The notes under the pieces: model-generated
What the model saw: only the letters and a program-made list of their open reading frames with translations
Database searches by the model: none
Told to the model about the DNA's origin: nothing
IMG/VR virus record: IMGVR_UViG_3300009159_000038
Span: 62,001 to 126,000 of that record
Strand: one strand, 5' to 3'
DNA: 64,000 bases
DNA from: an uncultured virus (IMG/VR IMGVR_UViG_3300009159_000038)
Taxonomy: Duplodnaviria; Heunggongvirae; Uroviricota; Caudoviricetes
Made by a program: the position numbers and the translations under genes
Shown here: piece by piece, positions 46,667-58,949 of the stretch
Numbering within the stretch: the stretch's first letter is position 1
Layout of the letters: each line of letters opens with the position of its first letter

Positions 46667-47154
46667 TGGAAATATTTAGACAAAATCTAGGTAAACGTCC
46701 AACGAAGTTCGGTATCGTTCTCGATCGATTAAAACCTAGATATCAAAAAATATTGAAGAAGAATCCCATCATTCGTAATTATTCTACGGATGATAGGCTT
46801 CTTAAATGTATCTTCAAAATAGAAGATCGATTAATACAAGTATCACATCTAAAAAGAGTTTTTATCGAACCTAAAAGTGGAGAAATATCTTCATTTAAAA
46901 TCATCAGGGAATCATATCATCAATTTGATTGGAATTGTACTTTTTGCAATAAACCTATCAAATCTCGTATAGATAATTATGAACCAGGAAACTTTACTTG
47001 CATGAAATGCGAGAATACATATATTAAAGGAACTCGAAAAATTCCAAGAAGAATTATCGAGGAATCTTTGAGATTCACAGAACATGTGAAAACCTTAATG
47101 AAAGAAGATCAAAAGAAAATTATAAAATATATCAAGAAAAATGATGAATCTTAA
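46666..47154 (+). CDS. Zinc-finger hypothetical protein
   Basis: CTFC...CMKC. Confidence 0.65.
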   Translation: MEIFRQNLGKRPTKFGIVLDRLKPRYQKILKKNPIIRNYSTDDRLLKCIFKIEDRLIQVSHLKRVFIEPKSGEISSFKIIRESYHQFDWNCTFCNKPIKSRIDNYEPGNFTCMKCENTYIKGTRKIPRRIIEESLRFTEHVKTLMKEDQKKIIKYIKKNDES

Positions 47155-48646
47155 ATACTTCAGTGATTTTGTTAACGAAGCAAAAACCACTGACGCAAAA
47201 ACTGTTAAAAATCCGAGAGTTAAATTAGTACTTCTAACAAATGCTAGTAAAGAATCTCATACAGTTCCTACCTTTGCAGCCGAATGTAAAAAAATGGGTG
47301 CTGAATTTATCGTTATTGATATTAGTACAGCAATGATTGCCGAAACCAAAGATGGTAATTTTCTAATCAGTGATAAAGAAAATCCCAAAGGTCTTAAAAT
47401 CAATGCTGATAATACCGCAATTCTTACTCGTCGTGGAGTTGTTAGAAATACTTATACAAAATCTCTAGTTGAAAAACTTCAAGATAATAACTTCTTTGTG
47501 GTTAATACTCTTGAAGCTATTATGGCTTGCGAAAACAAATATGTTACTACTAAAATCCTTAAAGAAGCTGGAATTCCAGTTCCTAAAACTGCAATCGTTG
47601 ATGGAGAAGATTCTATTGATAGAGCGGTTAAAGATATTGGTGGTAAATTTCCAGTAGTATGTAAGATACTTTCCGGATCTCAAGGAATTGGAGTTTCTAT
47701 CGTTGATTCTCTTGCTTCTCTTAAATCAGTTCTACAAACCATTTGGAAAGTGGATCCTTCAGTTGAAATCTTGATTCAAGAGAAAATTGAATCTGAATAT
47801 GATTTAAGAATACACGTTTTGACGAGAAAATTCAACTCGCCAACACCAGAAGATACAGATTCAGTACTTCTTGGTTATATGAGAAGAAATCGTGTTAAAA
47901 AAGACTTCCGTACCAATTACTCATTAGGAGGAACTGTTGAAAAAACTAAAGTAACTCCAGAACAAGAAAAAATTGCTATCGAATCAGCTAAGGCGGTTGG
48001 TTGCAATTGGTGTGGTGTGGATATTATTGTAGATAAGAAAACTGGAAAAAATTACGTACTTGAAGTTAATGCTTCTCCCGGAACTACCGGATTAAAGAAA
48101 GCAACTGGAGTTAACGTGGTTAAAGATATCGTTCAATTCTTAATGGATAAAACCAATTGGATTCGTTCTAGAAAACGTGTTGGATTCCGTGAAGTTATTA
48201 CAATTCCTAATATTGGAGATATGGTTGCTAAATTTGATACCGGTAATGGATCTCTTTCATGCACAATCACTTATGATAAATTAGATGTAAATGAGAAAGA
48301 GAAGATTGTTAAATGGACACTTGGTGGAAGAGATTTTGAATCTAAATTTGTAGGATTCACTGAAACTGAAGTAGGTGATACTATCGAGAAACGTCCTGTT
48401 ATCGAAATGGATATTCAATTTGCTGGTAAAGTTTATAAGAAAGTTCAAGTTGCATTAGATGATCGCTCAACCAAGAGTACTAAATTCCTTGTGAATCGTA
48501 AATTCATGGAGAGAATTGGTTGTTCCGTTGATCCAATGAGAACCTTCATCGTATCCTCATTCCCAGTAGCTTATCATGGTGGAGAAGCGAAGAAAGAGCC
48601 ACATGCCGGAATTATTTTCGAATGGGATAAAAAGAAAACTAAATAA
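47141..48646 (+). CDS. rimK: RimK-family ATP-grasp ligase fused to a retropepsin-like (RimB-type) protease domain
   Basis: NKY.T...L...GIPVPKT, FPVV.K...GSQGIGV, QEKI...DLRI.V, FRTNYSLGG, GVDII, VLEVNASPG. C-domain VG.RE...AKFDTG...RPVI...L.DR.......LV.R.FM. Confidence 0.88.
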   Translation: MMNLKYFSDFVNEAKTTDAKTVKNPRVKLVLLTNASKESHTVPTFAAECKKMGAEFIVIDISTAMIAETKDGNFLISDKENPKGLKINADNTAILTRRGVVRNTYTKSLVEKLQDNNFFVVNTLEAIMACENKYVTTKILKEAGIPVPKTAIVDGEDSIDRAVKDIGGKFPVVCKILSGSQGIGVSIVDSLASLKSVLQTIWKVDPSVEILIQEKIESEYDLRIHVLTRKFNSPTPEDTDSVLLGYMRRNRVKKDFRTNYSLGGTVEKTKVTPEQEKIAIESAKAVGCNWCGVDIIVDKKTGKNYVLEVNASPGTTGLKKATGVNVVKDIVQFLMDKTNWIRSRKRVGFREVITIPNIGDMVAKFDTGNGSLSCTITYDKLDVNEKEKIVKWTLGGRDFESKFVGFTETEVGDTIEKRPVIEMDIQFAGKVYKKVQVALDDRSTKSTKFLVNRKFMERIGCSVDPMRTFIVSSFPVAYHGGEAKKEPHAGIIFEWDKKKTK

Positions 48647-49257: not shown

Positions 49258-49323
49258 TGTTAATAAGTTTTGAAAAATAATTGACTAAAAATTTTTTTAT
49301 TCCACTTATTTGTATTATATTTG
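49258..49323 (+). promoter_or_regulatory. Early-type promoter copy 1
   Basis: TGTTAATAA...TTTTTTATTCC-N12-TATATTTG. Confidence 0.75.
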
Positions 49324-49346
49324 TTATAACCAATTAATATAAACAT

Positions 49347-49541
49347 ATGAAATTAACTATCGATCTTAAATTCTTCGCTTACTTCGTAATTGCATTTCTC
49401 GTTTCCTTTTCAATCGTCTCAGGATTTGCACAAAGGTACATTCATTTTGCTGCCGTGGAAAACGAAATGGCTTGCTTCACACTTTCTTCTACTATGGCCG
49501 TAATTTGTTTATTTGCCTCTTTCGAACGAGTAAAAAAGTAA
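49347..49541 (+). CDS. Small membrane protein
   Basis: Two hydrophobic segments; directly downstream of the early promoter. Confidence 0.6.
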   Translation: MKLTIDLKFFAYFVIAFLVSFSIVSGFAQRYIHFAAVENEMACFTLSSTMAVICLFASFERVKK

Positions 49542-49579: not shown

Positions 49580-50530
49580 ATGAAGGTATCAAATATGTTA
49601 TGGACCGAGAAATATCGTCCAAAGGTTCTAGAAGAACTTATTCTCCCTGAACGTGTCTTTGCCAAAGTTAAAAATGGCGTATATCAAAATCTACTTTTTT
49701 ATGGTGGTCCAGGCAGTGGAAAAACTTCTACGGCAAAAGTACTTGCCAAAGAACATCCAACAATGTATATCAATTGCTCATCAGAAACTGGTGTCGATGT
49801 GGTTCGCACAAAAATCACAGAATTCTGCTCGACTCTTTCTGTAATCGATGGTGAACGTAAAATGAAAGTGGTTATTCTCGACGAGTTCGATGGTGTATCT
49901 GATCAATATATGAAAGCTCTTCGTGGAACAATCGAACAATTTCATAAAACTGCTCGTTTTATTGCAACTTGTAATTACTTCAATAAGATTCCCGATAATA
50001 TTCAATCTCGATTCGAATGTATTAACTTCGACTTTTCCGACGAAGAATCTAAAGAAATCGAAAAGAAATATCTTCGTCGAGTATTTGATATTCTTAAGAC
50101 TGAAGGTATGGAAATCGAAAAAGATGCTTTACTTGAATTAGTTCGTCGTAAATTCCCAGATCTTCGTGCTACCATCTCGATTCTTCAAGGTTATAATGCC
50201 GAAGGAAGAAATAAAATTACATCCGAAGATGTGAAGAAATTTCATGGTGTATTCCGTGATCTTTACGAACACATATTCTCAACTAATGACGAAATCAAGA
50301 ATTATCAATTTCTCGTTTCCAATTACTCAAATCGAGTTGAAGATGTTATTCAAGCATTAGGAACTGAATTTATCGAATATATTCAACTCGAAAAACCTCA
50401 TCTAATGCGTAAAGTTGGTGAAATCTGTTTCGAAACAAATCGACACTCTTACGAACAACGTTTTGTAATTGATCCGGTAATTACCATGCTTTCTTTGGTT
50501 TATAAAATACAGGCAATCGTACGATCTTAA
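49580..50530 (+). CDS. 44: Clamp loader large subunit (gp44/RFC-like)
   Basis: LW.EKYRP, GGPGSGKTS, IN.S...G.D..R, ILDEFD, FIATCN, SRF, PDLR. Confidence 0.93.
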   Translation: MKVSNMLWTEKYRPKVLEELILPERVFAKVKNGVYQNLLFYGGPGSGKTSTAKVLAKEHPTMYINCSSETGVDVVRTKITEFCSTLSVIDGERKMKVVILDEFDGVSDQYMKALRGTIEQFHKTARFIATCNYFNKIPDNIQSRFECINFDFSDEESKEIEKKYLRRVFDILKTEGMEIEKDALLELVRRKFPDLRATISILQGYNAEGRNKITSEDVKKFHGVFRDLYEHIFSTNDEIKNYQFLVSNYSNRVEDVIQALGTEFIEYIQLEKPHLMRKVGEICFETNRHSYEQRFVIDPVITMLSLVYKIQAIVRS

Positions 50531-51065: not shown

Positions 51066-51072
51066 GATAAAT

Positions 51073-51128
51073 TGTTAATAACTTTCCTCATAAAGATTTT
51101 TTTATTCCCAAAAGATTTATTATATTTG
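51073..51128 (+). promoter_or_regulatory. Early-type promoter copy 2
   Basis: TGTTAATAA...TTTTTTATTCC-N12-TATATTTG. Confidence 0.75.
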
Positions 51129-51159
51129 TAATATATTAATCAATTAAAAAATCAAATCA

Positions 51160-51645
51160 ATGGCAACATTCTTTATCAATCGCTTCCCTATTTGTACAAT
51201 GGTTTACAAGGAAGCTGCAGAAATGCAAAATCACGAACCACAATTTGCAAAATCACTTGCAGTCGCTAGAGCAGTATTCTTTGCTGCCGCCAAGAAAGGA
51301 TTCACAAACAAAAATGGAAAACATTACAACGGTCTAAATTCTCCAGATTTAGATATGCCTGAAATTTACTCAATGAACTTCTCCGGTATCGACGCATTTT
51401 GTATGGAAACTCCTAATGGTACTCGATCATGTTTACTTGATGGTAAAGTATTTGAACCTGAAGCTTATGATAAAACCGAAGAAAAAATCATTTCTTTAGT
51501 AGGTGTCGATGGGTTACAAAAAATGCAAACTGAAATACGAACTAGATTAGAAAAACTTGGTGATAAAATCAATTCCACTAAGGTATTCGATGTATATGCA
51601 TCTATTCGCGATAAAGTACGTTCAATCGAATTTATAAATTCATAA
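51160..51645 (+). CDS. Hypothetical early protein
   Basis: Clean ORF after the early promoter. Confidence 0.65.
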   Translation: MATFFINRFPICTMVYKEAAEMQNHEPQFAKSLAVARAVFFAAAKKGFTNKNGKHYNGLNSPDLDMPEIYSMNFSGIDAFCMETPNGTRSCLLDGKVFEPEAYDKTEEKIISLVGVDGLQKMQTEIRTRLEKLGDKINSTKVFDVYASIRDKVRSIEFINS

Positions 51646-51648
51646 TCT

Positions 51649-52161
51649 ATGCTAGCATATCCTCCTAAACCTACAGCAATTCTTCCACATGAATCCAAGA
51701 TAGAGAATTACATAATTCAACCTAAATGGCGTGGATGGCGAATTGCAATACATAAAAATAAATCATGGACAAGGACTGGTAATTCAATTCCAGTCCAAAC
51801 TGATTATCCTGAAAAACCTTATGAATATCAACTAGATGGAGAAATCATTTCAACGGACAAAGAAGTAGAACATCGAGTTCGTGGTGCAATAAAAAGTGGT
51901 CGATATCAAATTCGTATATTTGACATATATCTACCAGAAAGACCTGATGCTACTATTGAGGAAAGACTTCAAGTTCTTAAATCGGATTTTGGAATTGAAG
52001 TAGAAACTCATAGTGCAAAAACCGGAAAGGATATTGAATCGCTCTTTAAGATGTTTACTGCTCGTGGAAATGAAGGTTTGGTAATGAAACTTAAGGGATC
52101 TAAATATCGAGCATCGCAAAGTGGAAATGAAATTGATAACAATTGGTCAAAAATCCGTTAA
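51649..52161 (+). CDS. Minimal ATP-dependent ligase (adenylation domain only)
   Basis: IQPKWRGWR (motif I variant), TRTG, LDGEI (III), IFDI (IIIa), EGLVMK (IV), WSKIR (V); no OB domain. Confidence 0.75.
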   Translation: MLAYPPKPTAILPHESKIENYIIQPKWRGWRIAIHKNKSWTRTGNSIPVQTDYPEKPYEYQLDGEIISTDKEVEHRVRGAIKSGRYQIRIFDIYLPERPDATIEERLQVLKSDFGIEVETHSAKTGKDIESLFKMFTARGNEGLVMKLKGSKYRASQSGNEIDNNWSKIR

Positions 52162-52280
52162 AAATCAAAGTACCGAGATATATAATTAACAAACTTTTAA
52201 AATGTTTGTATTCTGTGAAACTGGATAACTTTCCATCATATAATATAAACAAACGTTCTTTAAATTAACACAAACTTTAA

Positions 52281-52340
52281 CAAGTGGTAAGCGGTCGAGT
52301 TACTTCGTTATCAGAAAAACACTCACCCATCATTCCCTTG
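52281..52340 (+). ncRNA. Candidate Y-RNA-like small RNA 1
   Basis: CAAG-U-GG/CC-CUUG closing stem; GGU(C)GAGU/ACUCACC helix with bulged C; sits upstream of Ro60. Confidence 0.6.
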
Positions 52341-52349
52341 ATAAGATAT

Positions 52350-52523
52350 TTTGATAGTAGTTATGCGTAGAGTTACATCGTAATCCAACTTCGCAAGAAG
52401 TTATTATACAATTAATTCTATAAATGAAAACCAAAGATTGCGGTTCTTAATTGATCCACTATCACACGAATTTAAGCTTAGGCTTTTATTCAAAACCATC
52501 TCTACCCGGGATTCTCTATCAAA
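52350..52523 (+). ncRNA. Candidate Y-RNA-like small RNA 2 (paralogue of RNA 1 with a large internal insert)
   Basis: UUUGAUAG-U-AG/CU-CUAUCAAA stem; GUAGAG/CUCUAC helix; shares GAGUUAC.UCGU.AUC with RNA 1; internal AACUUC-GCAA-GAAGUU hairpin. Confidence 0.6.
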
Positions 52524-52532
52524 CATTTTTAC

Positions 52533-52564
52533 AAGGGATTTGCTTTCGAGCGAATCCCTTTTTT
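52533..52564 (+). terminator. Rho-independent terminator between the ncRNAs and Ro60
   Basis: AAGGGATTTGCT-TTCG-AGCGAATCCCTT followed by a T run. Confidence 0.88.
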
Positions 52565-52594
52565 ATTGAATTGAAATTAATATAAAATCGATAT

Positions 52595-54184
52595 ATGGCA
52601 CGTTACAATCAAAAACCGACAAATACAGTAGAAACTGTAACTAACCACCAAGGTGGAGTATCTGTAAAATTAGATCCTAAAATAGAGCTGGTAAGCATTC
52701 TAGCTAATGGATTCGATAATACCTATTACGAGAAATTGAGTGATCGAGAAATTCGATTTGCAGACTTAATTCAAGAAATCGCAAAGACCGATTTGGAATT
52801 CGTTGCAAAAGCTCTTGTATATACTCGTTCAGTAATGGGTCAACGATCAGTAACACATTTTGGATCCGTTGCTTTAGCATCCGAACTTTCAGGAAGTGAA
52901 ATCGCAAAAAGATTTTTCTCTAAACGAGATCGTAAAGAAAATCAAGGTGGTATTGTATATCGCATTGATGATATGCTCGAAATTATGGCTTGCTATCAAG
53001 CTCTTAATCCCGGTAAACCAATGCCTAACTCAATGAAAAAAGGTTTTCGAGATACTCTTGAATCATCCGATGCTTATGAGCTAGCTAAATATCAAGGTAA
53101 AGGAAGAACGGTTTCATTGGTTGACTTAATAAACCTAGTTCATCCAAAACCGAATATCAAAATGCAACCCATCTTTAAATCATTGATGGAAGGAACTCTT
53201 AAACAATTCAATACCGTTGAAGATAAGAATACCTCATCTGGTCAAGAAGTTGCAAAGAAAGTGAAAGAAGGAACCATCACTAAAGATGAAGCGGTGATCG
53301 AGCTAAAGGTTGCAAAGGAATCGAATTATCGTGAGCTAATCACAACGAAGAAAATTGGTTATCTTGCTCTTTTAAGAAATGTTCGCAATATTCTCTCGAA
53401 TTCAACCGAAGCAGATTTAATCGATTCAGTTTGTGAAATGTTAACTAACAAAGGTGCAATTCACAAATCTCTAGTATTTCCATATCAAATCGATTTAGCA
53501 ATGGAAATGATTATGGAAACCGGATCTTCTACTAGTCGCAATCGAGTTATTAAAGCTCTTAATGATGCATATGAGCTATCAATTCCTAATATGGCTGAAT
53601 TGGGAATGAGTGGTAGAACTGCAGTTGTACTTGATACATCTGGTTCTATGAATTCTCAAATTCGTTTAGCAAATAAAGCACACGGTTCTCAATCAGCACT
53701 TGATAAAGGCGGTTTAATCGCTGCAACTTTTGCTAAAGGTTTAAATGCCGATGTTTATGAATTCTCTAATACTTGTAAACGAGTAAATGTGAATCCATTA
53801 GATACCTCCAATACCATCAAAGAAAAGATTATTCGTCAAGGATCTCATGGTGGAACTGAATTTAATTCAATCTTCTCAACCCTAGAAAAAAATGGTGCAT
53901 ATGATCGAGTATTCATTATTTCCGATATGCAAGGAAGAGATGATATTATTAATGGTAATCAATGGTCATCCAAAGGAAAAAGTACATACTCAAATTACAT
54001 ATCTAAATTTGGTTCACCACATGTTTATACAATTGATCTTTGTAGTTATGGAACTACCATGTTCAAACCAAATAACAAAGTTTATCAGCTATTTGGATAT
54101 TCATCAGAAATGTATGAGTTAGCTAAACGAATGGAAATTGATCCTAAAGCTCTTATCAAAGCGATTGAAGCTATTGTAATCTAA
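52595..54184 (+). CDS. Ro60/Rsr-like TROVE-domain RNA-binding protein with C-terminal vWA domain
   Basis: TNHQGG, YYE, FVAKA.VY.R..MG.RS, R.DD..E, YELAKY...VSL.DL.NL.HPKP, YLALLRN.RN, FPYQ; vWA DTSGSM, GGT, ISDMQ. Confidence 0.9.
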   Translation: MARYNQKPTNTVETVTNHQGGVSVKLDPKIELVSILANGFDNTYYEKLSDREIRFADLIQEIAKTDLEFVAKALVYTRSVMGQRSVTHFGSVALASELSGSEIAKRFFSKRDRKENQGGIVYRIDDMLEIMACYQALNPGKPMPNSMKKGFRDTLESSDAYELAKYQGKGRTVSLVDLINLVHPKPNIKMQPIFKSLMEGTLKQFNTVEDKNTSSGQEVAKKVKEGTITKDEAVIELKVAKESNYRELITTKKIGYLALLRNVRNILSNSTEADLIDSVCEMLTNKGAIHKSLVFPYQIDLAMEMIMETGSSTSRNRVIKALNDAYELSIPNMAELGMSGRTAVVLDTSGSMNSQIRLANKAHGSQSALDKGGLIAATFAKGLNADVYEFSNTCKRVNVNPLDTSNTIKEKIIRQGSHGGTEFNSIFSTLEKNGAYDRVFIISDMQGRDDIINGNQWSSKGKSTYSNYISKFGSPHVYTIDLCSYGTTMFKPNNKVYQLFGYSSEMYELAKRMEIDPKALIKAIEAIVI

Positions 54185-54198
54185 TTTAATAACCTCAC

Positions 54199-54232
54199 AA
54201 AAGCTCGGATTCGCAAGTTTCCGAGCTTTTTT
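54199..54232 (+). terminator. Rho-independent terminator
   Basis: AAAAGCTCGGA/TCCGAGCTTTT stem followed by a T run. Confidence 0.85.
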
Positions 54233-54244
54233 AATTTGTACTCC

Positions 54245-54676
54245 ATGAAAAAAGAAATATACATACAAAATCGCAAAGCAAAATTTGATTATCATTTTAT
54301 AGAACAATATGAAGCCGGTATTGTATTATTTGGTACCGAAGTAAAGAGTATCAAAGCGGCTAAAGTGTCTTTAGTAGATTCATATTGTTTCTTTGATAAA
54401 GGTGAGTTATTTGTCAAATCAATGAATATAACTCCGGTTGACAAATCTTTCGTTCATGAACCAATGAGAATACGAAAACTTCTTCTACACAAAAAGGAAC
54501 TTCGTAAATTAGAAAAGGGACTTAATGATGGAATTACTATTATAGTAACTGCACTCAAATCCGTGAATGGAAAAATCAAATGTGGTATTGCATTAGCCAA
54601 AGGTAAGAAAGAATACGACAAACGAGAAACTATTAAGCAGAGAGAATCTGATCGATATGTTCGAGAAGAATGTTAA
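54245..54676 (+). CDS. smpB: SsrA(tmRNA)-binding protein SmpB
   Basis: NRKA.FDY...YEAGIVL.GTEVKSI, HEP.R.RKLLLHKKE, LAKGKK.YDKRE.IK.RE. Confidence 0.96.
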   Translation: MKKEIYIQNRKAKFDYHFIEQYEAGIVLFGTEVKSIKAAKVSLVDSYCFFDKGELFVKSMNITPVDKSFVHEPMRIRKLLLHKKELRKLEKGLNDGITIIVTALKSVNGKIKCGIALAKGKKEYDKRETIKQRESDRYVREEC

Positions 54677-54682
54677 TAAAGA

Positions 54683-54748
54683 TGTTAATAAGTTTTGAAT
54701 CTTTTCCTCAAATAAATTTTTTTATTCCACAAAAAAGTATTATATTTA
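54683..54748 (+). promoter_or_regulatory. Early-type promoter copy 3
   Basis: TGTTAATAA...TTTTTTATTCC-N12-TATATTTA. Confidence 0.7.
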
Positions 54749-54774
54749 TACTATAATTAATAATACAAATAACC

Positions 54775-55086
54775 ATGGAAAAACATAATCTTCTATTAAC
54801 CGATTTAGAAACACGAGTTCTTGAAAATCTAATCGACAATCTTTATGCAGAACCCGGGTTTTCCGATGTAGACGCAAAAGATATTTCTCGTTCAACTGGA
54901 ATTCCAACGAAATCCATTCGAGGTGTACTTTCATCACTCGTTAAAAAAGGAATCGTTCATCTAGAAGAAACCGATACATACGGTGCTTCTGAACAATTCG
55001 TTCTCATTTATTTAATGGATTCACATTACTATCTCCATCCACAATGGAAGGAAGAATACGATTCACAAAGATATGGTCAAATATAA
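54775..55086 (+). CDS. Winged helix-turn-helix DNA-binding protein
   Basis: LT.LE.RVL..L...AKDIS..TGIP..SIRGVLSSLVKKGIV. Confidence 0.75.
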   Translation: MEKHNLLLTDLETRVLENLIDNLYAEPGFSDVDAKDISRSTGIPTKSIRGVLSSLVKKGIVHLEETDTYGASEQFVLIYLMDSHYYLHPQWKEEYDSQRYGQI

Positions 55087-55098
55087 AAACAAAACATT

Positions 55099-55833
55099 AT
55101 GCCAAAATTATTTAAAGTAGGAGGTTGTGTAAGAGATTCCTTTCTAGGAATTGATTCAAAAGATATCGACTTTACATTTGTTCTCGATAACCTTGAACAA
55201 ACCGTCGAACATGGTTTTGCCGATATGGCAAAATGGATGAAAGATAAAGGATTTGTAATATTTCTATCAACTCCAGAAATGTTTACTATTCGAGCTAAAT
55301 TTCCGAAAGGAGATACAAACGAAGGTTTAGTCGCTGACTTCGTAATGGCTAGAAAAGAAATTGGTTATGTTGAAGGAACTAGACGTCCAATACTTGCATT
55401 AGGTACTTTGGAGGATGATCTTTTACGAAGAGATTTTACTCTTAATGCAATGGCTGTTGCAGAAGACGGAACGCTAATCGATCTATTCAACGGTAAAGAA
55501 GATCTTGAAAATGGTTTACTTAGAACTCCTCTTCCGGCTTCACAAACGATGATGGATGATCCATTAAGGTTCCTAAGAGCTTTAAGATTTTCCATCACTA
55601 AAGATTTTCAAATACATCCTTCTATATTTGTTGCTATGATGCAACCGGATATATTAGAAAAACTTAAACATGTAGTTTCTGCTGAAAGAATAAGAGATGA
55701 AGTTTACAAAATGATGAAAGCCGATACCATAAAAACTCTCGAGCTATTTGCAGTTGTAGAAGCCACTATACCTGGATTTATTGAATTAGTATTTAGTCGA
55801 GGTCTATGGTTAAAACCAACATTCGAATTATAA
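55099..55833 (+). CDS. Class II tRNA nucleotidyltransferase (CCA-adding / poly(A) polymerase family)
   Basis: VGGCVRD..LG...KDIDF, R.E..Y..G.R.P, DL.RRDFT.NAMA, DDPLR.LRA.RF, SAERI..E..K. Confidence 0.9.
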   Translation: MPKLFKVGGCVRDSFLGIDSKDIDFTFVLDNLEQTVEHGFADMAKWMKDKGFVIFLSTPEMFTIRAKFPKGDTNEGLVADFVMARKEIGYVEGTRRPILALGTLEDDLLRRDFTLNAMAVAEDGTLIDLFNGKEDLENGLLRTPLPASQTMMDDPLRFLRALRFSITKDFQIHPSIFVAMMQPDILEKLKHVVSAERIRDEVYKMMKADTIKTLELFAVVEATIPGFIELVFSRGLWLKPTFEL

Positions 55834-55874
55834 TGGCAATTCCATCATAAAATAATAAAATTAAAACAAAACAA

Positions 55875-56318
55875 ATGGCGCAAGCACAAAAGAAAAAACC
55901 GGTAAGCAAAACAAAAGAGCTAACGGATATAGAAATTGCAAAGAAGATGATTAATATACATCAAAGTGCAATGGATCGTAAAATCGAATTTAACCTATCA
56001 TTTGAATATGTTAAACGTATGTTAGGATTCAAAACCTGTTATTATACAGGAGTAACATTTACTGAAGATGGACCTAATGCAAGATCATTCGATCGAATAG
56101 ATTCCGATAAAGGTTATATTGAAGGTAACGTAGTTGCATGCACGATCGATATCAATGGAAAGAAAAGTAATTTAACCATTGATGAAATCGCTTGTCTTTA
56201 CAACAAATTAGTAAAGACTAAAAAGGAACCAATCCATAAAGCATTTGATGAAGATCATGCAACGGATATGGTTCTAAATTCGATGGTTGTTGATATCGCT
56301 GAAAATCTAAATTGTTAA
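55875..56318 (+). CDS. HNH-like (His-Me finger) nuclease-fold protein
   Basis: CYYTG...SFDRIDS.KGY..GNVVAC...N..K. Confidence 0.7.
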   Translation: MAQAQKKKPVSKTKELTDIEIAKKMINIHQSAMDRKIEFNLSFEYVKRMLGFKTCYYTGVTFTEDGPNARSFDRIDSDKGYIEGNVVACTIDINGKKSNLTIDEIACLYNKLVKTKKEPIHKAFDEDHATDMVLNSMVVDIAENLNC

Positions 56319-56333
56319 TAATTAACATAAACT

Positions 56334-56663
56334 ATGAAAAAATCAATTATGATGGTATTATTAGTAAGTAGCTTACTAAGTTTTACAAAAGTAAACGCAC
56401 AATCTTTCAACAAAGAAACAAACTATAAATTGCAATTCAGTCCAACCATGATTGGAGCAATTGCTGGTGGAGGTTTTATCGTGGCAGGAATATTACAGAA
56501 ACCTGATCGTAAATGGGTGATAGATCAAAACAGTTATAATGCAACCGCTTATGGACAACCAGGTTATTGGCGAAATGAGCACATTTGGGAATCGCCGGGA
56601 CGTATGGCTGCAATAATTTCTGGAGTAGCAATAATGGGTTTATCTATAACATTTAGTTTTTAA
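56334..56663 (+). CDS. Exported/membrane protein
   Basis: Signal peptide MKKSIMMVLLVSSLLSFTKVNA-Q; two hydrophobic segments. Confidence 0.65.
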   Translation: MKKSIMMVLLVSSLLSFTKVNAQSFNKETNYKLQFSPTMIGAIAGGGFIVAGILQKPDRKWVIDQNSYNATAYGQPGYWRNEHIWESPGRMAAIISGVAIMGLSITFSF

Positions 56664-56673
56664 ACTTACAAAA

Positions 56674-57000
56674 ATGAAACTATTATCAACATTTATCCTA
56701 TTAACCAGTATTTGCGTATCATGTAATTCTGACTATCCATATATCATTAAAGAAACCAGAACAACCGATACAATACAATATCCGGTTGTTGAGTATACTA
56801 ACAATATATCTTTTAAAGAAGATACTGCATTTTATGGGATTATAAAGGATTGTCAATTTAATTGTTATGTTATGGATATTTATAAGGAAAATGATTCGGT
56901 TACTGCATATGTAACAGAATGTGGTCTTTATTTTTATTCGGATATCCCATATAGCATAGGAGATTCACTTTTTAAGTTTTCGTCACCTAAACATAATTAA
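56674..57000 (+). CDS. Putative lipoprotein
   Basis: MKLLSTFILLTSICVS-C lipobox-like signal. Confidence 0.55.
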   Translation: MKLLSTFILLTSICVSCNSDYPYIIKETRTTDTIQYPVVEYTNNISFKEDTAFYGIIKDCQFNCYVMDIYKENDSVTAYVTECGLYFYSDIPYSIGDSLFKFSSPKHN

Positions 57001-57016
57001 TCCATTATCTTTAAAT

Positions 57017-57072
57017 TGTTAATAACTTTTTGTCAATAAATTTTTTTATTCCACAAAGATTTATTATATTTG
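57017..57072 (+). promoter_or_regulatory. Early-type promoter copy 4
   Basis: TGTTAATAA...TTTTTTATTCC-N12-TATATTTG. Confidence 0.75.
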
Positions 57073-57099
57073 TATATACAATTTAAACTATTTAAAATT

Positions 57100-57441
57100 A
57101 TGTACAAACACGAAGAAAACCAATTAGATCCAAGAGATAAAGCTTTAGTTACTTACTCTCCCACTACAAAAAGATTTATTGTAGAAGCATCCTCTCTTAA
57201 AGGTTCTGGAATCGAACCACAATATCATCCAGGTGTTCTTGGATCTTATTATTATTTATGGTTATGGTCAGAAAAACTACAAACGAGTATTCTTTACAAA
57301 GAAAAAAATGTAGTAAAATCATCTGATGGTGAAATTATTGCAAATGTTTTTATTCCGGATTTTACTATGATTACTACGGATAAAGAACTAAAAGCTAGAT
57401 CATTATCAAAAGAAACGGAATTACACATCTTAAACGATTAA
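57100..57441 (+). CDS. Hypothetical early protein
   Basis: ATG at 57100, downstream of promoter copy 4. Confidence 0.6.
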   Translation: MYKHEENQLDPRDKALVTYSPTTKRFIVEASSLKGSGIEPQYHPGVLGSYYYLWLWSEKLQTSILYKEKNVVKSSDGEIIANVFIPDFTMITTDKELKARSLSKETELHILND

Positions 57442-57677: not shown

Positions 57678-58949
57678 ATGGTTGGTAAATACACTCTTAT
57701 ATTCGATGCAAATTTCTGGTTACACAAAACCTATTTCATCGGTCAAAAAATTAAACAAGGAAAACCTTTTAATTTCTTTGACGAACCCGAAGCCGATAAG
57801 AATTTGCTTCTTTGGAAACTTTCAGTAGACTTCGCTGCCGAAGTAAAACGTTTCGACGGAATCGTTAATCGTGTGGTTTACTGCATCGATTCATCTTCAT
57901 GGCGTAAGGAATTCTTTCCACAAGCCGAATACAAAGGAACTCGTAAAAAATCTAGCGAAATCAATTGGAATGCAATCTATCAAGTACATGATGAATTTGC
58001 TAAAGCTCTTGAATCTCTTGGTGTTACAATTTCTCGAGTACCTGGTGCTGAAGCCGACGATTTAATTTTCGCATGGTCAGCATTCCTTAATCAAAATGGT
58101 CAAAATGCCCTTATTATCTCTGGTGATAATGATTTACTTCAATTAACTAATCATGATACATCTGCTGGTACAAACACTATTTACTACAACAAATTCGATA
58201 AAGATATTCACGTCTTCCGAGGATTCGAAAAATGGTTAAATGAAGATGCTACTCAATCTGCACCAACGGATATTTTCAATCTTCCAGTAGATCTAATGTC
58301 TAATGTAAAACTGAATCTTCGAGATATCGTTCGTACTAATAAAATGAAAATCGATGAAGTAAATACTCTTGAATTCGTTTTCAAAAAAGTACTTATTGGT
58401 GATGCCGGCGATAATGTTTCGCCATTAGATACCAAGATTAAAGAAACTAAAAAAGGACCTATTACTTATCGAGTTACCGATAATCATGCTCGTCAAGTTC
58501 TAGATGAATTCAAAAGCGATAAAGTATTTGTTAATCAATCTCACTTTTTTCAAGATGAATTCATCGAGGAAATCTGTACAATTGCTAAAAGAATAATCAA
58601 AATCGATAAACCTATCGAAGATATTATTACCAAATGGAAACAAAACCGAGATCTAGTATTCTTACATAAGCGTTGTATCCCGGAAAGAGTAAACGGTCTT
58701 ATGTTCGAAAATATCGAAACTAAATGGAACAAATCACTTTCAGGTGCTTCAGTTCATGGTATTCAAGATAAAGATGCTATTCTTCGAGGAACTACATATT
58801 CAAAAGAAAAAACAGATTCATTTAACGAATCAGGAGTTTTCAAAGCAATGAAAATTGAAGATATTATAAAAGGAAATCATGAAGTAACGGTAACTAAAAC
58901 TCCGGCTGAAGGATTCAATGATGATTTTTGGTCAAATCTAACTAAATAA
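57678..58949 (+). CDS. rnh: 5'-3' exonuclease / T4 RNase H-like flap nuclease
   Basis: LIFDAN, D..SWRK.....YKGTR, EADDLI, ISGD.DL.QL, GD.GDNV. Confidence 0.9.
   Translation: MVGKYTLIFDANFWLHKTYFIGQKIKQGKPFNFFDEPEADKNLLLWKLSVDFAAEVKRFDGIVNRVVYCIDSSSWRKEFFPQAEYKGTRKKSSEINWNAIYQVHDEFAKALESLGVTISRVPGAEADDLIFAWSAFLNQNGQNALIISGDNDLLQLTNHDTSAGTNTIYYNKFDKDIHVFRGFEKWLNEDATQSAPTDIFNLPVDLMSNVKLNLRDIVRTNKMKIDEVNTLEFVFKKVLIGDAGDNVSPLDTKIKETKKGPITYRVTDNHARQVLDEFKSDKVFVNQSHFFQDEFIEEICTIAKRIIKIDKPIEDIITKWKQNRDLVFLHKRCIPERVNGLMFENIETKWNKSLSGASVHGIQDKDAILRGTTYSKEKTDSFNESGVFKAMKIEDIIKGNHEVTVTKTPAEGFNDDFWSNLTK

Follow-up and report, generated by a model that had tools for sequence, protein, structure and literature searches.

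Y RNA genes lie beside the gene for the ring protein Ro60 in bacteria and in 22 phages, and tRNA mimicry has been described for them (Chen et al. 2014, PMC4201824). The Mycobacterium smegmatis Y RNA YrlA is cut by RNase P and receives CCA (PMC4201824). In Thermus phage phiLo, Ro60 binds the two Y RNA-like transcripts Yrl1 and Yrl2 and forms complexes with the host PNPase (Hu et al. 2025, PMC12135203). TROVE (Ro60) proteins, CCA enzymes and RNA ligases have been classed together as RNA repair of jumbo phages (Iyer et al. 2021, PMC7824862), and phage SmpB, transfer-messenger RNA (tmRNA) and tRNA nucleotidyltransferase appear in the translation gene sets of phages above 200 kb (Al-Shayeb et al. 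2020, PMC7162821). Here we describe a locus that brings several of these genes together. The window, a stretch of 64,000 nt, comprises bases 62001-126000 of a 133,957-base virus record (IMGVR_UViG_3300009159_000038) that is judged 47% complete; a 254-kb record (G001) is identical to it over this region. The source is a large uncultured freshwater phage with an accessory island that holds Ro60, two small RNAs, SmpB and a tRNA-end repair enzyme. The region is probably a mosaic, composed of a replication and repair backbone and of an accessory island made up of two separate units.

The Ro60 assignment is well founded (PF05731, 50.5 bits against a cut-off of 23; phrog_850, E = 5e-35). Among solved structures the Ro60 of a Thermus phage comes closest (PDB 9KOP/9L5Y; E = 1.3e-20 over residues 13-515), and the likeness to the solved ring extends over the full length, including the C-terminal vWA part. 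A match of residues 345-506 to DUF7788 stays below its cut-off (17.9 against 27.1). Seven related viral loci were found through Ro60. All relatives, at 61-66% as well as at about 30% identity, have RNA modules just upstream, and the linkage between Ro60 and Y-like RNAs is kept in 11 of the 11 related records examined. What is conserved as a unit is Ro60 together with its upstream RNAs. RNA1 and RNA2 of the window end 74-250 nt before the Ro60 start codon, and in the relatives, too, the RNAs are encoded within about 4 kb of Ro60 and on the same strand. We also observe, 1-2 kb downstream of Ro60 in two relatives, a calcineurin-like phosphoesterase that could heal RNA ends (L007:8567-9223, L008:8768-9430).

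The 433 bases between the ligase and Ro60 genes (52162-52594) contain no open reading frame (ORF) with a family assignment, fold more stably than their shuffled versions (z = -4.8) and have a terminator at their end. The relatives carry a repeated module composed of AGURGU...GAGUUACUUCG (5' part) and ACUC...AUUCYCUU (3' part); in the whole 134-kb record the two parts are found at just two places, 52283 and 52356 in window coordinates. The lower helix of the module has a bulged U, and the R of the 5' part pairs with the Y of the 3' part. The upper helix ends in GAGU/ACUC, and its outer pairs vary between modules yet remain complementary. RNA2 and most other modules read xGAGUUAC in the 5' strand. 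A pairing test on 40 distinct modules gave a mean upper-helix energy of -7.61 kcal/mol for cognate strands against -4.01 kcal/mol for non-cognate ones, a difference reached by none of 10,000 permutations.

A covariance model (CM R1) was built from nine short modules. Several modules had been misaligned by MAFFT, and five (L006:4684, L049, L091, L045:4759 and L077) were for this reason left out of the seed alignment; the model later recovered all five. It yields 56 matches at E <= 1 in 23 sources, only one of which lies in the 64-kb window. No Rfam family reaches its gathering threshold in the window, and between 51000 and 56500 there is no match to tRNA, tmRNA or YrlA (RF02553) even at E <= 10, the two matches to other Rfam families being chance matches. 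Neither the window nor the whole 134-kb record gives a tRNA or tmRNA call with ARAGORN, a program that misses the tmRNA found by Infernal. The stem family is a structurally defined branch of Ro60-associated RNAs that the Rfam YrlA model misses. As far as sampled, this branch appears to be confined to phages.

RNA1 consists of a closing stem with the bulged U, an upper helix with a bulged C and a loop of about 20 nt. It scores 65.7 bits (E = 1e-11) with CM R1, of which it is itself one of the nine seeds, and its cognate duplex reaches -7.3 kcal/mol against a row mean of -5.0 kcal/mol. In RNA2, a closing stem of the family type encloses an insert of about 140 nt that folds into three hairpins and is not tRNA-like. 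L006 and L027, which encode Ro60 proteins with 66% and 30% identity to that of the window, have an identical stem in their last module before Ro60. The minimum free energy (MFE) fold of RNA2 (-38.6 kcal/mol, z = -4.0) keeps the lower helix. RNA2 is the weakest member of the family, and only its lower helix is secure.

Across the loci the stem encloses four types of cargo. RNA1 represents the first, a short loop. The second is a tRNA-like core in circular permutation (T arm, closed acceptor stem, D arm), as in YrlA, and the third an entire cloverleaf in the normal order, which ARAGORN calls as tRNA-Gln, Gly, Ser or Lys. RNA2 has the fourth, a domain of ~140 nt folded into three hairpins that show no tRNA features. 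The permuted modules of L006, L007 and L008 match RF02553 below threshold, at 31-39 bits against a gathering score of 69. Up to six modules stand in tandem at a locus. In the relatives with 61-66% Ro60 identity, the space before Ro60 is occupied by arrays of 12-24 tRNAs, with the modules at the Ro60-proximal end. The Gln-like cloverleaf module is kept in five phages; one of them (G003) also has an ordinary tRNA-Gln, so the embedded unit is an extra copy.

To define the spread of the family, we scanned viral and bacterial sequences for the module pattern. The viral scan gave 80 readable loci among the matches listed, mostly chance matches. Within these 80, CM R1 matches at E <= 0.01 occur in 22 loci on 19 contigs, many from records of 160-434 kb, and 58 loci have no match; a TROVE gene lies within the 3 kb fetched in 10 of the 19 contigs. 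None of the 80 bacterial loci listed has a CM R1 match.

The tRNA arrays of the relatives contain further RNAs. ARAGORN finds a tRNA with anticodon CUA (labelled Pyl), a possible amber suppressor, at L045:4018-4092 on the minus strand. The array of L008 includes, at 1062-1220, a tmRNA in circular permutation that scores 64.3 bits with RF04321 (gathering score 47); the 104-kb record of this relative shows no SmpB gene. In the unrelated phages csAssE-Sib (L272:4666-4884) and CcrColossus (L274:4173-4240), annotated tRNA genes stand 120-760 nt before Ro60 and may be tRNA-like modules of Y RNAs.

Four lake-water RNA libraries, from four studies, have contigs over the window RNA genes, which we take as a weak hint of expression. 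In library X9 the contig at 52272-52564 has a depth of 18.1, against 3-5 for the other contigs of that library, and in X16 the contig at 52272-52507 has a depth of 12.2, against 2-4. Further contigs cover 52265-52537 (X17) and 52358-52508 (X15), and RNA1 is covered in X9, X16 and X17. The X9 and X16 contigs start at the same base, and the X9 contig ends just beyond the terminator. No RNA-library contig lies on smpB (54128-54679) or on 55784-56151, which is not evidence of silence.

SmpB (PF01668, 160.4 bits) starts 51 nt behind Ro60. The phage also encodes a canonical one-piece tmRNA (RF00023, 85.6 bits against a gathering score of 47) outside the window, about 95 kb from SmpB (G000:C1:20731-21169, equal to L017:1501-1939, minus strand). 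It has the G3-U70 pair, and its frame gives DNTSTFTFEDAMAFVGGEVAIAA followed by a stop codon, a 23-residue tag ending in AIAA. The 3' end of this RNA reads ACUUCC with no CCA encoded. Therefore CCA must be added after transcription, which makes the tmRNA a candidate phage substrate for the CCA enzyme. Only two tRNA genes are present in the more complete record, 125 kb from the cluster.

The CCA enzyme belongs to the tRNA nucleotidyltransferases (PF01743, 72 bits; phrog_24229, E = 4e-57), and its translation, read by eye, contains GGCVRD, DID, RRDF and DDPLR, the catalytic motifs of the head domain. With 244 amino acids it is short: solved relatives of 390-580 amino acids align only over their first ~290 residues, and the body and tail domains that hold the tRNA elbow were not found, PolyA_pol_RNAbd remaining below its cut-off (16.6 against 22). 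The winged-helix protein encoded before it matches TrmB just above the cut-off (26.5 against 25.6 bits) and phrog_18303, with MarR_2 and DnaD_N below their cut-offs, and has no homologue before the CCA gene of L007. The HNH endonuclease-like protein encoded behind the CCA gene has homologues of 61-68% identity 1.6-2.3 kb from the CCA gene in four other loci (L279-L282).

The limits of the island are visible by comparison with L266, a relative whose small ligase is 80% identical to that of the window. In L266 the clamp loader, orf161 and the ligase are followed by a promoter-like element and then by the exonuclease. The 4.9 kb of the window at 52162-57013 have no counterpart there, and the island starts right after the stop codon of the ligase. 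The ORFs at 49347, 51160, 54775 and 57070 are each preceded by a copy of a repeated element of ~85 nt, and the left edge of the island has a diverged copy; the TATATTTG in this element fits the Bacteroidota -7 box TAnnTTTG and may point to a host in that phylum. RNA-library contigs break off inside the copy at 54666-54765 (at 54716 and 54764) and continue into other sequence, and these breaks fit an exchange of cassettes at the repeated elements that may take place between co-occurring strains.

The small ligase gene stands just outside the island. The match of its product to ATP-dependent DNA ligases is confined to the adenylation domain (PF01068, 34.2 bits against a cut-off of 26.2; phrog_114). 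Nineteen of its 21 close homologues have 170-172 amino acids, and 32 representatives clustered at 50%, mostly of 170-200 amino acids, retain motifs I-V and extend no further. Eighteen family members, with identities down to 24%, have motifs I, III, IIIa, IV and V, and more distant members have the canonical motif I, KYDGWR. No OB domain with motif VI is present: the window protein ends three residues after motif V, as do most representatives. The AlphaFold2 model has a mean predicted local distance difference test score (pLDDT) of 83, and Foldseek places adenylation domains of DNA ligases at the top of its matches (E = 1e-7); a phmmer search of the protein against the PDB gave no match.

In all relatives found, the ligase is adjoined by its upstream partner orf161 (identities of 94% in L004, 78% in L266 and 42% in L267-L269, where orf161 overlaps the ligase start by 20 nt), and conservation of the pair extends to identities of 42-47%. 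Searches of Pfam and PHROG assigned orf161 to no family, and ESM Atlas gave no usable match. Elsewhere the phage encodes an NAD-dependent DNA ligase of 658 amino acids (127.4 bits; G000:C1:3362-4066) and an Rnl2-type RNA ligase (96.9 bits; G001:C1:199018-199503), the latter 84 kb away, and a weaker second Rnl2-type match lies at G001:C1:239373-239846, ~700 nt upstream of the only two tRNA genes.

The features of the region are collected in Table 1. The preliminary description had placed six elements on one strand and four of them in the service of tRNA-like RNA. All six do lie on the plus strand at the positions given, and the gene calls are correct; the second statement holds by family annotation only, and neither RNA1 nor RNA2 is tRNA-like. 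It had also separated the genes by promoters and terminators. A sigma-70 promoter scan gives sites no more often than chance (27 found, 30.7 expected), and of four terminator-like sites (2.9 expected) one stands as a long strong hairpin, that behind RNA2. Small ORFs fill the space between the HNH-like gene and the exonuclease. Comparison with annotated phages by blastn gave a single match of 200 nt. Upstream of the clamp loader, positions 47141-48646 encode a RimK-like ATP-grasp protein with a C-terminal zinc-protease-like part.

Table 1. Features of the island and its surroundings (window coordinates, except where a locus handle precedes the position)
Feature	Position	Strand	Basis or remark
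gp44-type clamp loader	49580-50530	+	
orf132	between clamp loader and orf161	+	
orf161, upstream partner of the small ligase	51160-51645	+	backbone, not island
ATP-dependent ligase-like protein, nucleotidyltransferase domain only, 170 amino acids	51649-52161	+	PF01068; motifs I-V without an OB domain
Leader, diverged copy of the repeated promoter-like element, left island edge	52162-52271	+	weak alignment
RNA1, mini Y-like RNA	52279-52342	+	CM R1
RNA2, long Y-like RNA	52352-52521	+	5' motif match, closing stem
Intrinsic terminator after RNA2	52533-52560	+	12-bp stem, 5 G-C pairs, T run
Ro60/TROVE ring protein	52595-54184	+	PF05731, phrog_850
SmpB	54236-54676	+	PF01668
Repeated promoter-like element containing TATATTTG	54666-54765	+	
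Winged-helix protein, role not assigned	54775-55086	+	TrmB, phrog_18303
Short class II CCA-type tRNA nucleotidyltransferase, head and neck only, 244 amino acids	55099-55833	+	PF01743, phrog_24229
HNH endonuclease-like protein travelling with the CCA gene	55875-56318	+	phrog_1400, phrog_3118
Repeated promoter-like element, right island edge	57007-57102	+	
5'-3' exonuclease	57678-58949	+	
Fpg glycosylase	after the 5'-3' exonuclease	+	
Repeated ~85-nt promoter-like element, all copies	49291-49360, 51069-51152, 54666-54765, 57007-57102		diverged copy 52162-52271
Unpermuted cloverleaves (Gln-UUG, Gly, 'Ser', Lys-CUU-like) in a Ro60-type stem	L007:4717-4852, L007:4137-4267, L006:4453-4577, L030:2997-3130, L045:2897-3030(-), L084:2997-3132		

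The preliminary description had joined all six elements into one RNA-repair and translation-rescue module that counters abortive infection damaging the tRNAs or ribosomes of the host. A common theme, the handling of tRNA-like RNA, speaks for such a module, as does the classification of TROVE, CCA enzymes and RNA ligases as counter-defence functions of jumbo phages (PMC7824862). We surveyed the linkage of the genes in the 11 Ro60-bearing records of the wider group and in 16 viral loci centred on SmpB, four of them from this lineage, with neighbours identified by tblastn. SmpB is present in three of the 11 records; two represent this lineage, and in the third (G011) 172 kb separate it from Ro60. 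Six of the 11 have the CCA enzyme, near Ro60 only in this lineage and in G003 (2.7 kb); in the locus L007 the CCA gene lies 2 kb from Ro60. Among the 12 SmpB loci outside this lineage none has TROVE within 10 kb of SmpB, and in none of four annotated TROVE phages sampled (Vibrio pv27, csAssE-Sib, Thermus phiLo and CcrColossus) is SmpB, a CCA enzyme or a ligase annotated within 5 kb of TROVE; all four have tRNA genes nearby. Four SmpB loci resembling G011 (L279-L282) combine HNH, CCA enzyme, a PTH2-like fragment and SmpB within 5 kb, in another order and with no TROVE. Eight of the 16 lack HNH, CCA, PTH2-like and TROVE neighbours, and one of these eight has a tmRNA and 18 tRNAs beside SmpB.

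These linkage patterns make Ro60 with its RNAs one unit and SmpB with the CCA enzyme (and HNH) a second, looser one, their union being peculiar to this lineage. The ligase does not follow them: L266 keeps orf161, ligase and exonuclease where the block of Y RNAs, Ro60, SmpB, winged-helix protein and CCA enzyme is absent, and L267-L269 have the pair on contigs where no TROVE was found (L266-L269 are all fragments). This persistence assigns the small ligase to the backbone, and the Rnl2-type RNA ligase of the phage is encoded far away. The recurrence of SmpB, CCA enzyme and HNH after rearrangement in a second lineage, the CCA gene near Ro60 in L007 and the phosphoesterases beside Ro60 in L007 and L008 still speak for a single module. 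On balance we consider it unlikely, and the anti-abortive-infection purpose would follow only from the family names. Of the preliminary description, the links between Ro60 and the Y RNAs and between SmpB and the CCA enzyme are real; the ligase proved to be unlinked, Ro60 adjoins SmpB in this lineage only, and the suggestion that SmpB acts on the long Y-like RNA is unfounded, RNA2 having no tRNA-like domain and the phage encoding a canonical tmRNA.

The position of the small ligase right beside the Y RNA genes invites another reading, in which it acts on RNA, forms a split RNA ligase with orf161 in the layout of DraRnl/Rnl5 and is tied to the neighbouring island. The order of an N-terminal module followed by a nucleotidyltransferase resembles that of DraRnl (PMC1807946), and the phage already has an NAD-dependent DNA ligase. 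However, the 50 top Foldseek matches listed are all DNA ligases, and the AlphaFold2 model of orf161 (pLDDT 71) is mostly helical and matches no fold of the PDB at E <= 0.001, so that nothing points to an OB fold. Together with the persistence of the pair where the island is absent, this makes a role on RNA rather improbable. It is more improbable still that the stems are processing or stability signals of a tRNA-array transcript, leader-trailer helices for RNase III, P or Z, and not Ro60 ligands: they wrap complete cloverleaves at the 3' end of tRNA arrays in the relatives and lack the published CGAA motif, but the window has two modules directly before Ro60 and no tRNA array, the stem is kept beside Ro60 proteins only 30% identical, some modules are permuted in the manner of YrlA with a closed acceptor end, and both the ordinary tRNA-Gln of G003 and the TROVE genes within 3 kb of just over half of the matching contigs listed stand against it.

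The mosaic of backbone and two-unit island remains the reading that we prefer, and several points weigh against it. Insertion of the island cannot be distinguished from its loss, because no record of a relative is both complete and island-less. The association of SmpB, CCA enzyme and HNH in two lineages and the phosphoesterase beside Ro60 in L007 and L008 leave room for a shared function in RNA care. Because the phage already has an NAD-dependent ligase, the small ligase has no defined role in the backbone. As to the RNAs, CM R1 misses full-length RNA2 (best match 10.9 bits, local), and the upper helix of RNA2 is ambiguous, the MFE fold pairing 52367-75 with 52412-20 and not with the 3' CUCUAC. 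The published Ro60 motif GNCGAAN0-1G, or CGAA, is absent from most modules, and RNA1 has only GUCGAG. In the CM alignment 94.2% of cells pair against 71.8% in shuffled alignments, compensatory change is seen in 12 of the 14 consensus pairs, and covariation scores 0.543 (0.172 when shuffled, at most 0.124 with slid partners), figures that lean towards structure because the alignment was fitted to the model; the permutation test is free of this weakness. The RNA-library contigs prove neither transcription nor ends nor strand, and DNA may be present in such libraries.

In the mechanism that we propose, the backbone would comprise the clamp loader, orf161 with the 170-residue ligase-like nucleotidyltransferase, the 5'-3' exonuclease and the Fpg glycosylase, and the 4.9-kb island would sit in it, bounded by copies of the promoter-like element. 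A transcription unit of about 290 nt would produce the two Y-like RNAs and stop at the terminator, with the Ro60 gene next. Ro60 would bind the conserved closing stem of each RNA, and by analogy with the Rsr-Y RNA-PNPase complex and with Thermus phage Ro60 the particle may redirect or restrain a host exoribonuclease on structured RNA. The second unit would consist of SmpB, the winged-helix protein, the short CCA-type nucleotidyltransferase and the HNH endonuclease. Its SmpB would work with the distant phage tmRNA, whose tag ends like a degradation tag, and the CCA enzyme would complete or repair 3' ends, both those of this tmRNA and those of host tRNAs and the two phage tRNAs.

A bolder scheme, which we regard as doubtful at this point, would treat the closing stem as a portable handle for docking to Ro60, carrying interchangeable cargo (none, permuted tRNA mimics, Gln- and Lys-like cloverleaves or the RNA2 domain). 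The Ro60 particle, SmpB and the tail-less CCA enzyme would then have been brought together in this lineage to act on one pool of tRNA-shaped RNA during infection, for example in sensing or buffering attacks of the host on tRNA 3' ends and stalled ribosomes.

The findings have implications beyond this phage. An RNA family missed by current Rfam, with dozens of natural combinations of stem and cargo, makes the recognition rules of Ro60 testable, and likewise the role of the tRNA-like domain. Thematic gene neighbourhoods of jumbo phages can be built from independent cassettes at repeated promoter elements, which calls for caution in reading them as single machines. The 170-residue ligase with no OB domain, if active, could to our knowledge be the smallest ligase core known. 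Literature searches, in which the supplementary tables of the cited papers were not covered, returned no paper on this stem family, no Ro60-SmpB neighbourhood and no ligase of 170 residues lacking the OB domain.

Compared with the closest described systems, the locus combines familiar and divergent traits. As in Thermus phage phiLo (PMC12135203; PDB 9KOP, 9L5Y), two Y RNA-like genes lie upstream of Ro60 on the same strand, so that a phage Ro60 with two upstream Y-like RNAs is an already published layout. In contrast, the two Ro60 proteins are only ~24.5% identical, the phiLo RNAs carry the CGAA motif that most modules here lack, and phiLo has no SmpB or CCA enzyme annotated within 5 kb. With YrlA and YrlB of bacteria and mycobacteriophages (PMC4201824; RF02553) the modules share the linkage to Ro60 within 4 kb on the same strand and a stem formed by the 5' and 3' ends. 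The permuted layout of T arm, closed acceptor stem and D arm is shared by the sister modules in the relatives and not by the window RNAs; the conserved stem sequences differ from those of YrlA, up to six modules occur in tandem, and some enclose unpermuted cloverleaves.

The Salmonella rsr-yrlBA-rtcBA operon (PMC7790460) likewise has Ro60 and Y RNAs near enzymes of RNA-end repair. Unlike in that operon, the neighbouring ligase is DNA-ligase-like and part of the backbone, and RtcB (PF01139) is found in none of the three records of this phage lineage. Minimal ATP-dependent DNA ligases (Lig E, PDB 6GDR/8U6X, and the Chlorella virus ligase) share with the small ligase the adenylation fold and motifs I-V. 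They keep an OB domain with motif VI (~250-300 amino acids), whereas the family described here stops at motif V and is set apart by always following a conserved ORF of about 160 codons. The three gene kinds of the huge-phage sets with tmRNA, SmpB and CCA enzyme (PMC7162821) are also encoded here; the accessible part of that paper mentions no linkage to Ro60, whereas in this phage SmpB adjoins Ro60 and the CCA enzyme is a 244-residue form of head and neck. The gene families and the arrangement of Ro60 with two RNAs are thus known, and the stem family, its modular cargo and the pair of orf161 and the OB-less ligase are new variants.

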